Assembly: GCA_000002435.2 (NCBI GenBank)
Contig: CM018791.1
Length of the DNA stretch: 64,000 nucleotides
Origin: Giardia intestinalis
Taxonomy: Eukaryota
Direction: 5' to 3' (one strand)
This document shows positions 30,428-64,000 of the stretch, in pieces. The notes under the pieces were generated by a model that had not been told where the DNA came from, made no database searches, and worked only from the letters and a program-made list of their open reading frames with translations. Within the stretch, counting starts at the first letter, position 1. The number at the start of each line of letters is the position of its first letter. Made by a program: the position numbers and the translations under genes.

Positions 30428-33094
30428 ATGTCGTTGTCGGACTTTGACTACGGCCAGGAGCTCGTTGAGACCCCAGAGGAGCTCAACGCCCTCTTTGAGA
30501 AAGTGGAGGAGGCAGCCCATGCGTTCCGCCAGCTTGACCAGGCGCAGGTCGACAAGATCTTCTATGCCGCCGCTTTCGCAGCCTCGAACCAGCGTATCCC
30601 CTTGGCAAAGATGGCCTACGAGGAGACGAATATGGGTGTCGTCGAGGACAAGGTCATTAAGAACATGTTTGGGTCGGAATATGTGTATAACAAGTACAAG
30701 AACATGAAGACCGCTGGGATTATCGAGGAAGACAAGGCGGGCAATACAATTACTGTTGCAGACCCTCTTGGCATCCTCGCTGGTATTGTGCCCACCACAA
30801 ACCCGACGTCCACTGCCATCTTCAAGTGCCTTATAGCGCTCAAGACGAGGAACTGCATCATCTTCTCTCCGCATCACAGGGCCGTCAAGTCAACCATCCA
30901 CGCGGCACGCATTGTCCGTGACGCCGCCGTCAAAGCTGGAGCACCTCCCAATTGCATTGCCTGGATTACGAAGCCTTCCGTTCCCCTTGCGAAGGCTCTC
31001 ATGGGGCACCCCAAGACTAGCTGTGTCCTCGCTACTGGCGGCCCCGGCATGGTCACTTCGGCCTATAGCTCCGGCAACCCCTCCATTGGTGTCGGTCCGG
31101 GTAATGTCCCTGCGCTCATTGACGAGACGTGTGACTACAAGACCGCCGTGAACCAGGTTATCAATAGCAAGTCGTTCGACAATGGCGTCGTCTGCGCTTC
31201 AGAACAAGCCATCGTCTGTGTCACGAAGGAGATCTACGACAAGTGCATCGAGGAGCTCAAGTTCCGCGGCGCCTACGTCATGACGGAGGACGAGAAGCAG
31301 CGTGTCAACAAGCTGATCCTGCCACTGAACGAGGCCACTGGGAAACATCAGCTCAACGCCGACATAGTCGGACGCCCTGCCCGCGACATCGCTGCAAAGG
31401 CAGGCGTCGTCGTTCCTGCGGACTGCAAGTGCCGCTGCATCGTGGGAACCTTCACAGAGGTGCGCCACGACGAGGCGATGTCCTGCGAAAAGCTCTCCCC
31501 AGTTTTGGGTATCTGTTGGGCTGAGACATTCGAGAAGGCCGTCGACATTTGCGGACAGATGATCGATATGGCTGGGGCAGGCCACACAGCTGCGATTCAC
31601 ACAGCGCCCCACAGACGCGACCGCATTGAGTACTTCACGCACCACATCAGGGCTGGCCGCATTGTCGTTAACTCTCCGAGCACGTTTGGAGGTATCGGCG
31701 ATCTCTACAACTTTGCGATCGATCCCACCATGACTATCGGCTGTGGCTCATATGGCAAGAACTCCGTCTCTGAGAACGTCGGGCCGAAGCACCTTCTCAA
31801 CTATAAGAAGGTGGCCATTGTGAGGCGCAATCCGCTCTGGTTCAAGGTTCCGCAGGTGATGCACGTCGGTGAGGGCGCTCTTGCTAAGGCTGCTGCGGAC
31901 CTCATCTCCCGCGGGCTCTCCAGGGCTTATATCATCACTGGAAAGGTCATGCACGATCTTGGGTTCACGGACAAGATCATCAGCCCCCTTACTGCAGGCA
32001 ACGTTACTGTCAAGGTCTTCACAGACGTCCTGCCGGACCCTGACCTTGGGACCTGCTATAGGAGCCTTGCAGAGGTCAGGGATTTCCAACCGGACATGAT
32101 TATCGCTCTTGGCGGTGGCTCTGCGATGGATCTGGCGAAGATGGTTAGGCTTCTGTATGAGCATCCGAAGGTAGACTTTGCCGGGCTTGCGCAGCGCTTC
32201 ATGGACATCCGCAAGCGCATCTACGAGTATCCCGAGTGCCTGGATCTTCGCACAGCGAAAACGTTCAGTGTCGCAATCCCGACGACTTCTGGAACAGGCT
32301 CTGAGGTGACCCCGTTCTCTGTCATCACGGACGAGAAGGAGCACGTCAAGTATCCCCTTGCGGACTACCAGCTCATGACGCACATGGCTGTCATTGATCC
32401 AGAGCTTGTCCTGACCGTTCCTGCATCACTTGCTTCCTGGACGGGCGTCGACGCCCTAACTCACGCTATTGAGTCGTACGTGTCCGTTATGGCGACTGAG
32501 TACACCATGCCCCTCTCTCTCCAAGCAATCAAGACAGTCTTCGAGAACCTCGAGAAATCTGTCGTCAGCAGGTGCCCGACTGCTCGCGGAAATGTGCATC
32601 AGGCTGCGACCATCGCCGGCATTGCGTTTGCCAACGCTTTCCTGGGTATCTGCCACTCCTGCGCCCACAAGCTCGGCCAAAAGTATCACATTCCGCACGG
32701 GCTTGCTAACGCAATAATGCTCCCACACGTCATCAGGTACAACGCAGTCGACGATCCCGTCAAGATCGCCACGTTTCCGCAGTACCTCTACCCTGTTGCT
32801 CTCGAGCGCTACGCTGAGATAGCCGACTACTGCGGGTTCACGAACAAGAATGACGGGAAGAGTGTCAAGGAGAAGACGGAGATCCTCATTAAGAAGATCT
32901 ACGACCTCTATGAGAAGGTAGGGATTGACGCGAAGATCAGTGCGTGCAAGGAGGCTCCTGTTGAGGCAGACTTCTTCGCCGAGGAGAACCTGGACTATCT
33001 CGCATACCACGCCTTTGACGACCAGTGCACCGGTGCCAATCCGCGCTACCCGCTGATCGAGGACTTCAAGGAGCTCTTCCGTGCGGCCTGGTAA
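30428..33094 (+). CDS. adhE: Bifunctional acetaldehyde-CoA/alcohol dehydrogenase (AdhE)
   Basis: 888 aa. The N-terminal aldehyde dehydrogenase domain carries ...ITVADPLGILAGIVPTTNPTSTAIFK... and ...FDNGVVCASEQAIV... The C-terminal half is an iron-containing alcohol dehydrogenase with GGGSAMDLAK, the GxxHxxAHxxG-like block CHSCAHKLGQKYHIPHGLANA, and PRYPLIEDFKELF. ATG at 30428 lies after ttaattttaattctcg. Confidence 0.9.
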   Translation: MSLSDFDYGQELVETPEELNALFEKVEEAAHAFRQLDQAQVDKIFYAAAFAASNQRIPLAKMAYEETNMGVVEDKVIKNMFGSEYVYNKYKNMKTAGIIEEDKAGNTITVADPLGILAGIVPTTNPTSTAIFKCLIALKTRNCIIFSPHHRAVKSTIHAARIVRDAAVKAGAPPNCIAWITKPSVPLAKALMGHPKTSCVLATGGPGMVTSAYSSGNPSIGVGPGNVPALIDETCDYKTAVNQVINSKSFDNGVVCASEQAIVCVTKEIYDKCIEELKFRGAYVMTEDEKQRVNKLILPLNEATGKHQLNADIVGRPARDIAAKAGVVVPADCKCRCIVGTFTEVRHDEAMSCEKLSPVLGICWAETFEKAVDICGQMIDMAGAGHTAAIHTAPHRRDRIEYFTHHIRAGRIVVNSPSTFGGIGDLYNFAIDPTMTIGCGSYGKNSVSENVGPKHLLNYKKVAIVRRNPLWFKVPQVMHVGEGALAKAAADLISRGLSRAYIITGKVMHDLGFTDKIISPLTAGNVTVKVFTDVLPDPDLGTCYRSLAEVRDFQPDMIIALGGGSAMDLAKMVRLLYEHPKVDFAGLAQRFMDIRKRIYEYPECLDLRTAKTFSVAIPTTSGTGSEVTPFSVITDEKEHVKYPLADYQLMTHMAVIDPELVLTVPASLASWTGVDALTHAIESYVSVMATEYTMPLSLQAIKTVFENLEKSVVSRCPTARGNVHQAATIAGIAFANAFLGICHSCAHKLGQKYHIPHGLANAIMLPHVIRYNAVDDPVKIATFPQYLYPVALERYAEIADYCGFTNKNDGKSVKEKTEILIKKIYDLYEKVGIDAKISACKEAPVEADFFAEENLDYLAYHAFDDQCTGANPRYPLIEDFKELFRAAW

Positions 33095-59700: not shown

Positions 59701-60569
59701 ATCGCTATAGGCTGTGGGGTAGTCACCAGATCTATCAAGACACTCTTGCACTGTATGGACCCTCTGCTAGGGAACGGGTGCACCTTGTAGCGTGCTGGAA
59801 TGGTGACGGGAAGGCGCCTGATCTCGTTCAATTGATTATTGTACCAGCGATAGAGCCGAAGGACCAGCAGTTGGGTAGACCCTCGGGCATCGAGTTGTCC
59901 CAGCAACCGAGCGTACATGTGTCTCATGCCGTTTACGTCTATGTACTTATTTGCAGCAGTAGGTAGTTCAATAATAAGCACATAGGGTGGAGAACCTTGA
60001 ACATGCAGAGCCTCCCCAAAGATGTGGAGTGAATCAGCCACCGGCCGAATGATAAGTTGCTGAGTTTGCAAGCGGGTGCGCTTAATGAACAGCTTGGTAA
60101 GGACAGGAATATACGTCAATAGCAAAAGATATGAAGAGTCTCCCGGAAAGCATACGTCAGCAGGACTCCGAAGGCGAATGGAGGCGGTGAGTCCTTGCTG
60201 TTTAAGGTTAGTGACCGTTATGGTATACTGATATCGTGCACCCCAATCACGAGTAACAGTTGAAATGGCAAGAAGATGCCCATTGGGAGAAATAGCTGCT
60301 GAAAGTATGCGGCTCGTGGAAGGAAGAGAGGATAAAAGGGTAGCGCTCTTATTATGCTGGTGATCGTGTAATAAGATCTCTGAGAAAATACAGCGCTGAT
60401 TTTGCAGACGGCAAATAATTTCTCGAACCAAAAGAAATCTGGGTGAAGTCTCGGTGCCGACATCAAGAACACATGGTCCAGAGTGAACTCCAATCACCCG
60501 GAGATTTGCAGGACCCTCTGTGGTCCCTGAAGAACGAGGGAAGAGGCGTTCACGCGTTATCGTTAACAT
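56730..60569 (-). CDS. Hypothetical 1279-aa protein
   Basis: Uninterrupted 3.8-kb ORF. ATG at c(60567..60569) follows aaatttttaaagaagag (reverse strand). The central S/T/P/K-rich disordered region includes a KRKKQKQ basic cluster (possible NLS). No recognisable enzymatic motif. Confidence 0.5.
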   Translation of the reverse strand: MLTITRERLFPRSSGTTEGPANLRVIGVHSGPCVLDVGTETSPRFLLVREIICRLQNQRCIFSEILLHDHQHNKSATLLSSLPSTSRILSAAISPNGHLLAISTVTRDWGARYQYTITVTNLKQQGLTASIRLRSPADVCFPGDSSYLLLLTYIPVLTKLFIKRTRLQTQQLIIRPVADSLHIFGEALHVQGSPPYVLIIELPTAANKYIDVNGMRHMYARLLGQLDARGSTQLLVLRLYRWYNNQLNEIRRLPVTIPARYKVHPFPSRGSIQCKSVLIDLVTTPQPIAIFSCHSLGCTMIKICACLTASIFTFSLATPLQKVTEDAPRTAFQANAPHEKTLPAERDSTYLFNYEYVTATLHKFILLVHANYLLFIQPFSLSTAQLVIVALPSYGSMYIAYSALLPFQVCNFQAYYALKQFSKLPPVSSYISKYQSQAQYLLHYMALSLVDLSKEQILTDMHAARTTIDRMLEYVISPMSGSGGYADTPFGFISYAELASVYMHTRVRQIAGLPEAPKLDVEALCGWTGLNKENYPDVGMDSLHPTSLLSSLITLALNDPKSGASTLARTTSKATDSTPSPHTHQDVSATNLSTSRRLANPARIPSAMHTCQTDYTDEPRSPGEPSIPPIVVAPPTLTDLNALHSEVHSVNDSPDNFLTSTVTTSVADTTAFDELDEQPPQKRSGPRHKELSIDTLVSQRKVLLSQFQRKRKKQKQAADLDSSVTSVVSKKSMSSKLTSQFTPMIEAKDLEQKSLESDCASLSLELTYLSRPISGSINFPMQSTIDLTGLLKCIPQPSYTFYLKDIDEICHLSRSWRYSVIPSYCSSAEGWSTKVTFAAFDMLLQRQLDLTVDLSQLAINLCHPRPKDMCACLYEARLLRLNHKLVLLYHRYTRLLHINLLTIASDINTPSFSDSSQLHSIHVEWWKRLLSKLRTHCMLEYSTLVGCLLEKVSISLKTSNPSDSNAIQFSLLALKGILLNTQKANTSYPCSLAINLYSNPLHVFLHSVTQDKILTSSPWSKCTTMYAAHSYLHISNTLEHPSSATQLCTSKTDATNSLEQFGIPQQNIPIYDQSVEKNIKFGAGRAIELYKYMSTDSICPTYTNNYAQECLVELNTYVSDITALTTVAPCLSAFSGLITQRLDGQPSVEDEIEASIDTPILHASADLITNYSCNDCRHVWRDSAIYKAFVAIVERFYPNIADPFFIQVYADVISMCEACLGIDTNFSIEELNVIISICESLNLNLMGHRSTSRVLNRALSLLYGKFSDPMLQEMMGKYL

Positions 60570-60950
60570 CCTCTTCTTTAAAAATTTGTGCTACTCTACT
60601 CTACCCTATCGTTCTCAGGTAATTAATGATATCATAAAAAACAGAGAGACTTGTTAGTCGTGCACTCTACATAAGCTCAAGCCTAGAATTTAACAGATGT
60701 TTCACGGAGTAGAATGGAACTAATTATATTTGGGATTGATGTTTTATAGGTCTCCTGCTCTTTTTAGAGTTGCACTAAGCTGACGAGGTTTCCTCTTTCT
60801 TTGCTTATGGTTCATGCTTTTCTGACGCTGATTGGATTTGCTTGCAGGTTATTACTGAGCTCTACTACTGTTTCCGCTTCAAGTGAACTTTCTGCCGGCC
60901 GCGTTATACAGTATCATTGAAGATTTGTTATAACAACTATAACTCAAAAA

Positions 60951-61835
60951 ATGACGTCTGCGCCGCAGCCCTCGGGCCTCTTCGACCCGGCGCCCCGGCC
61001 CACGGCGGCGGGGGACGGACGCCCGCCCGCGGCAGCCGCGCCCTCGTTCGTCCTCGCCGGCGACCCCGAGGGCCTCGCAGGCGCGTTCCTCCGCGTCGTC
61101 CACCAGGCGCTCGTCCTCGGGCGGCTCGAGGCCCTCCTCGACGGCCCCCCGCCCGCCGGAGACGCCCCGCAGCTCTGGGCCGGGCTCCTCCGCGCCGCGC
61201 TCGCCGGGGCGGGGACGCTCGACCTGGGGCCTCTTGCCGCGCAGCTCGGGCCGCTCCCAGACCCCGGGGCGCTCCCGGCGCTCGTCCGCTCCCTCCCGGC
61301 CCCCGTCTGCGCCGCGCTCTTCGGGCTCCCCGGGCCCTGCCCCGCGTGCGGCGCGCCCTCCCAGCCCGGGGCGAGCGCCGTCCTCGCGCCCGGAGAGGCC
61401 CTCGCCGCAGGGGCCCGGCGGGTCGGCCTCCGCTGCGAGAGCTGCACCCGCCCAGACGCCCTCCCGCTCGCCCGGCCGCCCCTCCTCCGCGCCGTCGCCG
61501 TCCCCCCGGGCTTCGCGGGCCCCGTCCCCCTCCGGCTCCCCGGCGACCTCTTCCTCGGGGCCGTCGTCACCCGCGCCCGCGCCGGCCACGCGCTCTCGGT
61601 CTTCGTCAACCCCGCCTTCGCCCAGGGCCGGAGCGACCTCGTCCGGGACCGCCGCTTCGTCCTCTACGCGCCCCCGGCCGCCGAGCTCCGCGCCCAGCCC
61701 GGGAGCCGCGCCGCCGAGCTCACGTACCTCCGCTACCGGAAGGTCCAGGCGTACCTCGAGCGCCCCGCCGCCGCCCGCGAGGCCGCCTCCTTCGGGGCGC
61801 CCCGCTTCGTCTTCTACTTCGACGGAGACGTTCTG
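60951..61835 (+). other. Extreme-GC compositional island (roughly 80% G+C by eye, GC3 near 100%) embedded in ~45-50% GC DNA, coincident with the 5' part of the CDS
   Basis: The codon-periodic G/C third positions start exactly at the ATG (60951) and end near 61835. All six frames lack stops across it. The boundaries are sharp, about 10-20 nt each. Confidence 0.8.
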
Positions 61836-63437
61836 CACCCAGACATTAGGAAGCGCTTTAATGCGCTAGCCTCTGATACTGACCTGATTGCGATTAATCC
61901 ATCACTATCTGCTCCACATCAGCCTCCAACCCTTTCGCAGCCACACACGCTATCCTCCCCCAAGGAGCCAGAAACTGTTGATGTCACACTTAAAGTCGGT
62001 GGTGCTACCAAGCAAACTCTAGCTGAACAGCAGCACACTCTTGCCTCTCCGTCCCTAGATTCGAGACCGCCTTTGAGTACACTTTCTTTGCACAAATCTA
62101 GCCAACTAGTTGGTGAATCGACTCCTTGGAAAGAAACCAAGACGATCTTATTGCGCCCAGACTTTGTTCAGGAAAGGAAAACATCGTGTTCAGATGAATT
62201 TCGTGAGCACATGGGCATATACATTCTGATTATTGTTCTAGCAGTTATAGTTCTTGTTCTCTTCATCCTCGTGATTGTTCTCTATTCCAGATTGATTAAT
62301 TTGACTGTTCGCAATCTACTTGTCACAAATTTCACGGCAATAGGTGTCCAGTCACGCTTAGACATCCCCAACCCAGCGCAGTTCACGTGCCCAAGTGGGA
62401 TTCAAGACGTGAACGCAGTAAGATACTGTGAGCAGATGGCTCCTGATGCAACCGTTGGCCTCTATGCACCAACTGTTCGAACCGGTACATTCAATTCTAA
62501 GCAGTACAATGTGACCAACCTCTACTATTCTAATATCTTCCTTCTTAACTTTACTCAGATAGCCCCTCTGAATGTCTCCGAACTCATAGCACAGAATATT
62601 ATGACAAATGACGTCACATATAGTACAGAACTTGTCCAGGAAGGGACAGCAGAGTTCCGGACCGGCCAGGTTAGTGTCCAAGGCTTTAGAAGTGCAGATT
62701 TCACCAACACAACGCTGAATTTCAGTCTTACGAGCCTTTCTGCTCTTCATGTGCGTGGCATCTCCTCGCCAAGCTCTGTGACTCCGTCGACTATAGGAAC
62801 TGTCAATGCCGGCAAACTAGTGTTGGCTCAAAAAGATCCAATCACTCCAATCACCACCTTCAGTATAATAGGAGACGTCAATGTGTCACGCCTCGTTGGA
62901 GGCTCTACAACAATCGGACAGCAGGCACTAGAATGGGTGTTTCAGAACGTATCCGCTTCCAAGCTAGTTACCACACCCGTAACAACGACAGTCAAGACAA
63001 TCAATGGAATGGATACTCCTGTCACATTAGATATAAACCTCAATGATGCTTTGTCCGTGAAGACTCTCACTCTTCTTAAGTCGGGTACGTCGGCATCGAT
63101 CCAAATATCTGCTGCATTTACCATCAGTAAGGCTTCTGTATACAATTGCACTACAGCCTTGCTGACAATTCCTAGTGCCACAGCGACTCCGCCCAACACG
63201 GGAACTGGTTTGTATATCAAGAGCCTCTCTGATAAACCGTTTCCTCAGATATCTGCTCTGGTTGTGGGGAATATTCGGATTGACAATGGGGGGATATGCA
63301 ACGCCAATGACCCTCCGGCATCTACGACGCGGACATGCATGATATCAAGCGCAGGCAGCAGCAATATCGGGTCTATGTCTGCCACGACAGTCACTTCTAC
63401 TGGGCAGTTGAAGAGCTCTTTCTGCCAATGCACATGA
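60951..63437 (+). CDS. Chimeric-composition membrane protein (828 aa): ~295-codon extreme-GC N-terminal segment fused in frame to normal-composition TM helix plus N-glycosylation-sequon-rich beta-type ectodomain
   Basis: ATG at 60951 after host-style taactcaaaaa. Codons 1 to ~295 are almost exclusively G/C-ending; I saw only about 10 A/T-ending codons by eye. This gives an Ala/Pro/Arg/Leu/Gly-rich protein with CPAC...(28 aa)...CESC. The composition switches abruptly near 61835. A TM helix follows (MGIYILIIVLAVIVLVLFILVIVLY, nt ~62211..62290), then a 380-aa Thr/Ser/Asn-rich domain ending ...FCQCT. Confidence 0.6.
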   Translation: MTSAPQPSGLFDPAPRPTAAGDGRPPAAAAPSFVLAGDPEGLAGAFLRVVHQALVLGRLEALLDGPPPAGDAPQLWAGLLRAALAGAGTLDLGPLAAQLGPLPDPGALPALVRSLPAPVCAALFGLPGPCPACGAPSQPGASAVLAPGEALAAGARRVGLRCESCTRPDALPLARPPLLRAVAVPPGFAGPVPLRLPGDLFLGAVVTRARAGHALSVFVNPAFAQGRSDLVRDRRFVLYAPPAAELRAQPGSRAAELTYLRYRKVQAYLERPAAAREAASFGAPRFVFYFDGDVLHPDIRKRFNALASDTDLIAINPSLSAPHQPPTLSQPHTLSSPKEPETVDVTLKVGGATKQTLAEQQHTLASPSLDSRPPLSTLSLHKSSQLVGESTPWKETKTILLRPDFVQERKTSCSDEFREHMGIYILIIVLAVIVLVLFILVIVLYSRLINLTVRNLLVTNFTAIGVQSRLDIPNPAQFTCPSGIQDVNAVRYCEQMAPDATVGLYAPTVRTGTFNSKQYNVTNLYYSNIFLLNFTQIAPLNVSELIAQNIMTNDVTYSTELVQEGTAEFRTGQVSVQGFRSADFTNTTLNFSLTSLSALHVRGISSPSSVTPSTIGTVNAGKLVLAQKDPITPITTFSIIGDVNVSRLVGGSTTIGQQALEWVFQNVSASKLVTTPVTTTVKTINGMDTPVTLDINLNDALSVKTLTLLKSGTSASIQISAAFTISKASVYNCTTALLTIPSATATPPNTGTGLYIKSLSDKPFPQISALVVGNIRIDNGGICNANDPPASTTRTCMISSAGSSNIGSMSATTVTSTGQLKSSFCQCT

Positions 63438-63465
63438 GGGTTGAAAAGCATCATATGGTTTCCAT

Positions 63466-64000
63466 TTACATATCTTGTAACCTGTAGATTGCGGATACAA
63501 AGGCAACAAAAAGGGTGTGCGGGAGTCTGTGTTTTGACGTGAATTCAGGATGGTACTGGGTGGCCATGAAGAAGGGGTGTGCTTCTGTTGGTAACTCCAC
63601 AGCCATAGGAAGTTGGTTGGTGAAGTCCATACCACTTATTATCAGTCCGTGCTCAGTCAAGGTATCAATGTACTGGGTGTTGACGGCGAACGAGTGCCAG
63701 TGACGCTCCTTCACCTGAGGATACTTGTTGTAGCACTCGGATAGCATTGTGTTTGACTTAACTGACACCAGAAGGTCGCCCAGTCGCATAGTGCTATACT
63801 TTGCGGTGGTACCCGGATTGGCCGCGTTCTGCTGCTTGTGGAGAGGTTTGATTTGCCCGGTCTCAAGCATCTCACTAATGGGAATAATGAGTTTGTGCGG
63901 AGTGTCAGGGTCCATTTCCGTCGAGTTTGCATGGCTGAGACCACATACATTTCTCGCAAACTCGCACACCATCATCTGGAAGCCAAGACAGAGACCAAGT
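63466..64000 (-). CDS. CTP synthase, C-terminal glutamine amidotransferase domain (partial; 5' part beyond window end)
   Basis: Reverse-strand frame is open to the window edge. Translation ...LGLCLGFQMMVCEFARNVCGLSHANSTEMDP...KYSTMRLG...ERHWHSFAVN...LTEHGLIISGMD...HPFFMATQYHPEFTS...PLFVAFVSA matches the class-I GATase part of CTP synthase (GICLGMQ, MRLG, ERHRHRYEVN, QFHPEF). Confidence 0.85.
   Translation of the reverse strand, partial: LGLCLGFQMMVCEFARNVCGLSHANSTEMDPDTPHKLIIPISEMLETGQIKPLHKQQNAANPGTTAKYSTMRLGDLLVSVKSNTMLSECYNKYPQVKERHWHSFAVNTQYIDTLTEHGLIISGMDFTNQLPMAVELPTEAHPFFMATQYHPEFTSKHRLPHTLFVAFVSAIYRLQDM

Follow-up and report, generated by a model that had tools for sequence, protein, structure and literature searches.

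A paired CxxC motif in a GC-rich Giardia gene as the candidate fingers zinc site of a membrane-anchored, USP-like pseudo-protease domain

The window analyzed in this work is a stretch of 64,000 nucleotides of Giardia intestinalis DNA (contig CM018791.1, assembly GCA_000002435.2). Towards its end, a complete open reading frame (ORF) encodes a protein with two CxxC motifs in an exceptionally GC-rich N-terminal part, and these motifs and the domain that carries them are the subject of this report. The start codon sits directly after an A-rich stretch (ctcaaaaaATG), and the translation of ORF 60951-63437 around the motif reads ...LPGPCPACGAPSQPGASAVLAPGEALAAGARRVGLRCESCTRPDA.... The gene is laid out as follows (GC3 stands for GC content at third codon positions, USP for ubiquitin-specific protease):

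60951-63437, + strand: complete ORF, 828 aa
60951..61830, no strand assigned: GC block, 880 nt, 81% GC, GC3 0.96
60951..61877, + strand: predicted USP-like (peptidase C19 fold) pseudo-protease domain, aa 1-309
61308..61310, + strand: fifth cysteine, C120, in the helix before the first knuckle, not conserved
61338..61349, + strand: putative first zinc knuckle C130-P-A-C133 (CPAC), aa 130-133, invariant in 9/9 sequences
61434..61445, + strand: putative second zinc knuckle C162-E-S-C165 (CESC), aa 162-165, invariant in 9/9 sequences
61878..62210, + strand: low-complexity Pro/Ser-rich linker, aa 310-420
62211..62285, + strand: single transmembrane helix (MGIYILIIVLAVIVLVLFILVIVLY), aa 421-445
62286..63434, + strand: Thr/Ser/Asn-rich ectodomain, aa 446-828

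The sequence-only reading had described two CxxC pairs about 28 residues apart, and the gap between C133 and C162 is indeed exactly 28 residues. It had also taken these four to be the only cysteines of the segment, which is not the case, as the N-terminal 293 residues hold five (C120, C130, C133, C162 and C165). Random placement of five cysteines in 293 residues produces at least two CxxC pairs with p = 0.0014; for two such pairs at a distance of 10-50 residues, p is 0.00017. Together with the invariance of the quartet in the family alignment described below, these values bear out the earlier view that the cysteines are functionally meaningful rather than accidental. CPAC is furthermore preceded by an 'LF-x5' element that resembles the 'LFxG...CxxC' entry into the fingers of USPs.

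Homologues of the N-terminal domain were found by an exhaustive HMMER search, which returned nine matches. Among these are GL50803_3564 (P0003), a paralogue in WB (E 1e-43), a protein (P0011) that clusters with the 2125-aa 'putative LCAT' of WB (P0025), Giardia muris GMRT_13203 and GMRT_13193 (P0006 and P0007) and a 105-aa fragment (P0010). Further family members are known only from Logan contigs, namely P0004 as well as P0005, P0008 and P0009, the latter three from one run (SRR31929897) of a relative with a compact genome. Searching with the C-terminal half uncovered the orthologues P0001 from the assemblage B isolate GS_B and P0002 from the assemblage E isolate P15. P0001 begins within the GC-rich domain ('AQRVGVRCESCT...') and in its truncated form keeps the second knuckle (RCESCT). 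The gene for GMRT_13193 is followed by those for CTP synthase and EMP24, in the same order as in Giardia duodenalis, and P0007 is therefore regarded as the syntenic G. muris orthologue. Word-index searches with the N-terminal domain gave no homologue, and with the family profile they gave only a fragment of the LCAT paralogue (P0012); both also missed the known orthologue P0001 and are thus no evidence of absence, but an artefact, because low-complexity Ala/Pro-rich candidates saturated the search. When every ORF of the window was scanned by profile, no second family member came to light. In the data searched, the family occurs only in Giardia and a close relative.

The window protein and eight homologues were aligned (nine sequences, 24-36% identity). 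All four cysteines are kept in every homologue, which is what the sequence-only reading had proposed to look for, and they belong to a set of invariant columns that comprises F11, G37, D38, G41, W76, L95, P116, C130, C133, C162, C165, A204, R247, T258, L260 and G282. The quartet is even retained in GMRT_13193, where the loop is shortened (CQAC-x10-CPTC), and conserved USP-like motifs lie on either side of the knuckles. The invariant F11 (60981-60983) is part of an N-terminal motif, (M/L)-F-(D/E/x), that is present in every family member upstream of the folded domain; it might act as a docking peptide or as a linear motif.

Two observations concern the LCAT-related member of the family. In P0011/P0025 an LCAT-type alpha/beta hydrolase is fused N-terminally to the cassette of pseudo-USP, transmembrane helix and ectodomain. 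In SRR31929897 two family members stand in tandem (L005 10001-12571 and 13433-15643), and at a distance of a few kb a separate LCAT gene (L005 20085-22571) is found. These layouts may reflect a history of gene fusion.

In the window protein, aa 421-445 are the sole stretch with a 19-residue Kyte-Doolittle mean above 1.8 (maximum 3.99), and the same scan detected no hydrophobic N-terminus. Ten N-x-S/T sequons occur in aa 446-828 compared with none in aa 1-420. This distribution suggests a type II membrane protein (N-in/C-out) whose zinc-containing pseudo-USP head would lie on the cytosolic side. The linker contains a juxtamembrane cysteine, C413 (nt 62187-62189), and in paralogues cysteine clusters are found in the linker just before the transmembrane helix, which are possible palmitoylation sites. 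Directly after the membrane follows a conserved motif (NLTVRNLLVTN in the window protein, 'N-x-T-L-V-V-x-N-L-V-V' family-wide), and a CxC at the C-terminal end of the ectodomain is likewise conserved across the family. The ectodomain is rich in Thr, Ser, Asn, Leu and Val with a repetitive 'xLxVxN'-like pattern. No Pfam family matches it, and an AlphaFold2 (AF2) model of aa 446-828 built from seq­uences of seven members was unusable, with a predicted local distance difference test (pLDDT) value of 32.

The N-terminal domain, modelled with AF2 from the nine sequences, gave the confidently predicted compact fold that had been asked of a genuine metal site. The knuckles are enclosed by one continuous domain of ~280 residues (folded core ~aa 30-309, aa 1-21 of low confidence), and the structures that match this domain as a whole are USPs. 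The USP fold, exemplified by USP35 (5txk), USP1 (9hnw), USP7 (2f1z) and USP28 (6heh), is one of the closest known systems, and USP30 is among the structural matches. The model displays the right-hand arrangement of thumb, palm and fingers typical of USPs (peptidase C19). A zinc site in the fingers occurs in many USPs, albeit not in all. USPL1, like several other USPs, binds Zn2+ by four cysteines in this subdomain (PMC8983731). The family profile 'LFsselkCsaCg...aCpvCk' can be aligned to 'FSWDFECSQCG...PCNNCN' of USPL1, a weak match (E 0.6-0.8) that covers both knuckles and pairs the first with 'ECSQCG' and the second with 'PCNNCN'. It is on the basis of the USP-fold model and this alignment that the invariant CxxC...CxxC quartet is interpreted as the zinc site which USP folds carry in their fingers. 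Another weak alignment places 'LGAVVTRAR..AGHALSVFVNP' opposite the His box 'ILHAVLVHSG..GGHYVVYLNP' of USP7 (the USP7 and USP2 sequences used here are 100% identical to the PDB chains).

The proposal that a zinc ribbon or treble clef is present thus holds in part. A four-cysteine zinc site is well supported as a prediction, while the notion of an autonomous module is not, since the site lies within a USP fold. A stand-alone module binding nucleic acid or a protein partner would agree with two CxxC knuckles ~30 residues apart, with faint Pfam matches to DZR_2 (E 0.036), Zn_ribbon_GRF_2 (E 0.07) and zf-ChsH2 (E 0.084) and with a faint alignment to LIM domains (E 0.42). However, none of the zinc-ribbon matches, which range from E 0.036 to 2.3, is significant, each concerns one of nine members, and none involves the window protein. 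The embedding of the knuckles in a single continuous domain with whole-domain matches to USPs, and the USP-like motifs that flank them on both sides, speak in addition against a separate ribbon, so that we judge this explanation very improbable and see no case for the nucleic-acid-binding role once suggested.

In USPs, the nucleophilic cysteine resides in the first helix of the thumb, ahead of the fingers. Cysteine is absent from the corresponding region (aa 1-119) of the window protein, and the nine-sequence alignment contains no conserved cysteine column N-terminal to the fingers and no invariant Cys, His or Ser besides the zinc ligands. At the position of USP7 His464 the weak His-box alignment places Ala215, with Y, T, N, A, S or V in other members. 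The adjoining His214 is unique to this orthologue. The strand that probably corresponds to 'WxxFDD' reads 'FVLYAP'. Alignment and structural matches together describe a USP fold devoid of a catalytic triad; lacking Cys, His and Asp/Asn, the domain would therefore not be a thiol isopeptidase. An active, if unconventional, deubiquitinase or protease for ubiquitin-like proteins (Ubls), with non-canonical catalytic residues and zinc in its usual finger role, might be argued from the fold itself, from His214 being one position off the weakly aligned catalytic histidine, and from USP53/54, which were long mis-called inactive and then found active (bioRxiv 10.1101/2024.07.07.602376). That precedent involves two proteins that retain their triad, and the lack of any cysteine in aa 1-119, of invariant Cys, His or Ser beyond the zinc ligands and of His214 in other members makes an active enzyme, if anything, a shade less credible than the free-standing ribbon.

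A metal-free alternative is that the CxxC pairs form disulfides or a thiol switch. CxxC is also the motif of thioredoxin-type redox proteins, and Giardia is microaerophilic with an unusual thiol chemistry. Against this, the two-knuckle, four-cysteine arrangement sits where USP folds bind zinc (PMC8983731), the probable location of the domain is cytosolic and no thioredoxin-like fold is predicted. A redox function appears to us just as improbable as proteolytic activity.

We therefore consider it very probable that the quartet represents the fingers zinc site of a highly diverged pseudo-USP domain, which forms the head of a type II membrane protein of Giardia and has a binding or scaffolding function rather than an enzymatic one. 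The four cysteines would bind a structural zinc at the tip of the fingers subdomain, where the metal would staple two finger hairpins together and serve as an element of folding and stability. In genuine USPs the zinc region of the fingers is part of the surface that grips the ubiquitin-like ligand. The pseudo-USP domains of Pan2 and Sad1/USP39 serve as non-catalytic modules within their complexes, and the Giardia domain most likely has a comparable binding or scaffold role at the cytosolic side of the membrane, perhaps by reading ubiquitin or a ubiquitin-like protein.

Several points weigh against assignment to the USPs. It rests on a structure predicted from only nine sequences, with pLDDT near the knuckles just 73-87, and it is from this model that we infer both the S-gamma geometry of the four cysteines and the residue-by-residue equivalence of the catalytic triad. 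Canonical USPs have no significant sequence similarity to the domain: PF00443 gave no match, with cut-offs of E <= 1 in the case of the window protein, E <= 10 for the nine N-terminal domains and E <= 0.01 for the eight full-length homologues, and hhalign comparisons with USP2, USP7 and a Giardia USP were non-significant. Profile-profile alignments, whether the target was USP7 alone or an alignment of three USPs, yielded weak local matches only, either in the His-box region or between the first helix and the QQD-box helix, the latter probably spurious, and failed in global mode. A sequence search of the PDB with a single N-terminal domain returned noise only. The experience with USP53/54 calls for caution when a USP is declared inactive, and the binding of zinc as well as of ubiquitin by the domain are predictions.

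Similarity to canonical USPs (PF00443) is undetectable in sequence, and the family has not preserved the catalytic Cys, His and Asp/Asn. The Giardia domain, unlike canonical USPs, belongs to a probable type II membrane protein whose ectodomain is large. In USP2, ~50 residues separate the first knuckle from the CCRC pair, compared with a loop of 28 residues in the window protein and of 10 in the G. muris orthologue. USPL1 (7p99, 7zju), an atypical, SUMO-specific USP to which the match is non-significant, is an active SUMO protease with a Cys-His-Asp triad and a soluble nuclear protein. Pan2 (4q8g, 4xr7) and Sad1/USP39 (4msx, 6ah0) also combine a USP fold with the absence of a catalytic triad. 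They are not orthologous; the exonuclease or ZnF-UBP partner domains are absent from every Giardia family member according to Pfam, and the membrane-anchored order of N-terminal domain, transmembrane helix and ectodomain differs from their context. USP30 in the mitochondrial outer membrane and USP19 in the endoplasmic reticulum hold their USP domain on the cytosolic face by a single transmembrane helix. The Giardia proteins would share this feature if the proposed topology is correct. Both USP30 and USP19 are active enzymes with essentially no lumenal or extracellular domain, whereas the Giardia USP-like domain appears catalytically dead and is coupled to a sequon-rich ectodomain of ~380 residues.

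The zinc motif as such is an ordinary and already known feature of the USP fold; what is of interest is the family and the GC island. A membrane-anchored, apparently catalytically dead USP-like family had previously not been annotated. Neither Pfam nor the HMM-based (hidden Markov model) inventory of the Giardia ubiquitin system flags these proteins as USP-related; the latter lists other USPs and omits them (PMC7029713). No paper on GL50803_3564 was found in the literature. Our analysis provides a predicted fold and a testable role for Giardia 'hypothetical proteins', namely the product of the gene studied here, GL50803_3564, the 2125-aa 'LCAT' fusion and GMRT_13193/13203. The few USP folds known to be non-catalytic would thereby gain a membrane-anchored example.

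The GC content of the block amounts to 0.78-0.845 in 200-nt windows, compared with 47% for the whole stretch. The block extends from the ATG to codon ~293, some 15 codons short of the modelled domain end, and its 3' edge coincides with the 'FYFDG' codons in all three assemblages (A, B and E). In the ORF frame, GC1/GC2/GC3 are 0.85/0.62/0.96; on account of this codon periodicity and of homologues that align in the same frame, the ORF frame is taken as the true coding frame. The idea that the motif arose by chance in GC-rich DNA, not truly coding or horizontally acquired, could draw on the fact that all six frames are open through the block and on the first, negative word-index protein search; it is negligible in view of the periodicity (GC3 0.96 against GC2 0.62), of homologues in at least three genomes with an invariant quartet, of the low chance probability of the paired arrangement (p <= 0.0014), of the artefactual nature of that search and of the syntenic G. 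muris orthologue. ORFs in alternative frames or on the antisense strand were likewise dismissed as by-products of GC richness, by codon periodicity and homology. The block has no match to an RNA family in Rfam (60000-64000, E <= 1) and is therefore not an rRNA-like element.

Horizontal acquisition of the block was rejected, and with it the earlier description of the GC-rich domain as acquired. The paralogue GL50803_3564 encodes the same domain at an ordinary GC of 0.46, and an elevated GC is seen already in the syntenic orthologue from G. muris: in GMRT_13193 the N-terminal domain (L003 8001-8750) has a GC of 0.67 and a GC3 of 0.68 compared with 0.47 in the rest of the gene, a weaker elevation that is again confined to the domain. 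Because of this paralogue, the composition in G. muris and the shared 3' edge, the enrichment is best viewed as an old, lineage-specific and domain-confined process. Synonymous divergence (dS, NG86) of the window sequence from assemblage B amounts to 0.106 in the block and 1.46-1.58 in the rest of the gene, a ~14-fold difference; the values for assemblage E are 0.086 and 0.54-0.70. In the block, the ratio of non-synonymous to synonymous divergence (dN/dS) reaches ~0.64 (versus assemblage B), and C<->G transversions account for eight of the twelve differences from assemblage B at third positions. Such a pattern is to be expected when A/T alleles are steadily lost, either through GC-biased gene conversion or because selection favors GC, and not under sequence-specific constraint. 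Low dS combined with a GC3 of 0.96 suggests a long-standing fixation bias in favor of GC.

The composition of the block has consequences for its representation in databases. Draft contigs end inside it in GS_B (AHHH01000104, L001 1) as well as in P15 (ACVC01000107, L002 1), and a Logan contig from short reads that includes the adjacent gene (SRR26410999; L007 1-120) stops ~27 nt into it (window ~60977). A second listed Logan contig has the same layout, and 21 further places were grouped as similar. The N-terminal domain of the gene is thus systematically lost from short-read and draft assemblies. Since contigs break off in the GC block, the protein collections searched do not contain the full-length protein. 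The paper on the WB PacBio genome does not mention GC-rich gaps (PMC7000408).

A more far-reaching scenario can be put forward only tentatively, and we regard it as rather improbable in its entirety. The proteins may constitute a hitherto unrecognized, diplomonad-restricted, single-pass family in which a dead, zinc-stabilized USP head serves as a membrane-tethered reader of ubiquitin or a Ubl and links a large ectodomain, located at the surface or in a lumen, to the ubiquitin system. The 81% GC island would have been kept since before the split of G. muris and G. intestinalis by a GC-favoring fixation bias, which would have cut synonymous divergence ~14-fold and hidden the domain from draft and short-read assemblies and from the protein collections searched.

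The remainder of the window contains long intron-free ORFs with domains of eukaryotic type, including those for CAF1, bifunctional AdhE, a cullin-like protein, a leucine-rich repeat (LRR) protein, a cis-prenyltransferase and CTP synthase. Its overall GC content of 47% is near the 46.3% of the PacBio WB reference (PMC7000408). A single uninterrupted ORF of 8169 codons (5864-30373, + strand; TTG start in the mechanical ORF list) far exceeds its neighbours in length. The AdhE gene (30428-33094, + strand) is the sole other compositionally distinct gene of the window, with a GC of 0.56 and a GC3 of 0.72 versus ~0.5 elsewhere, a shift far milder than that of the GC island.
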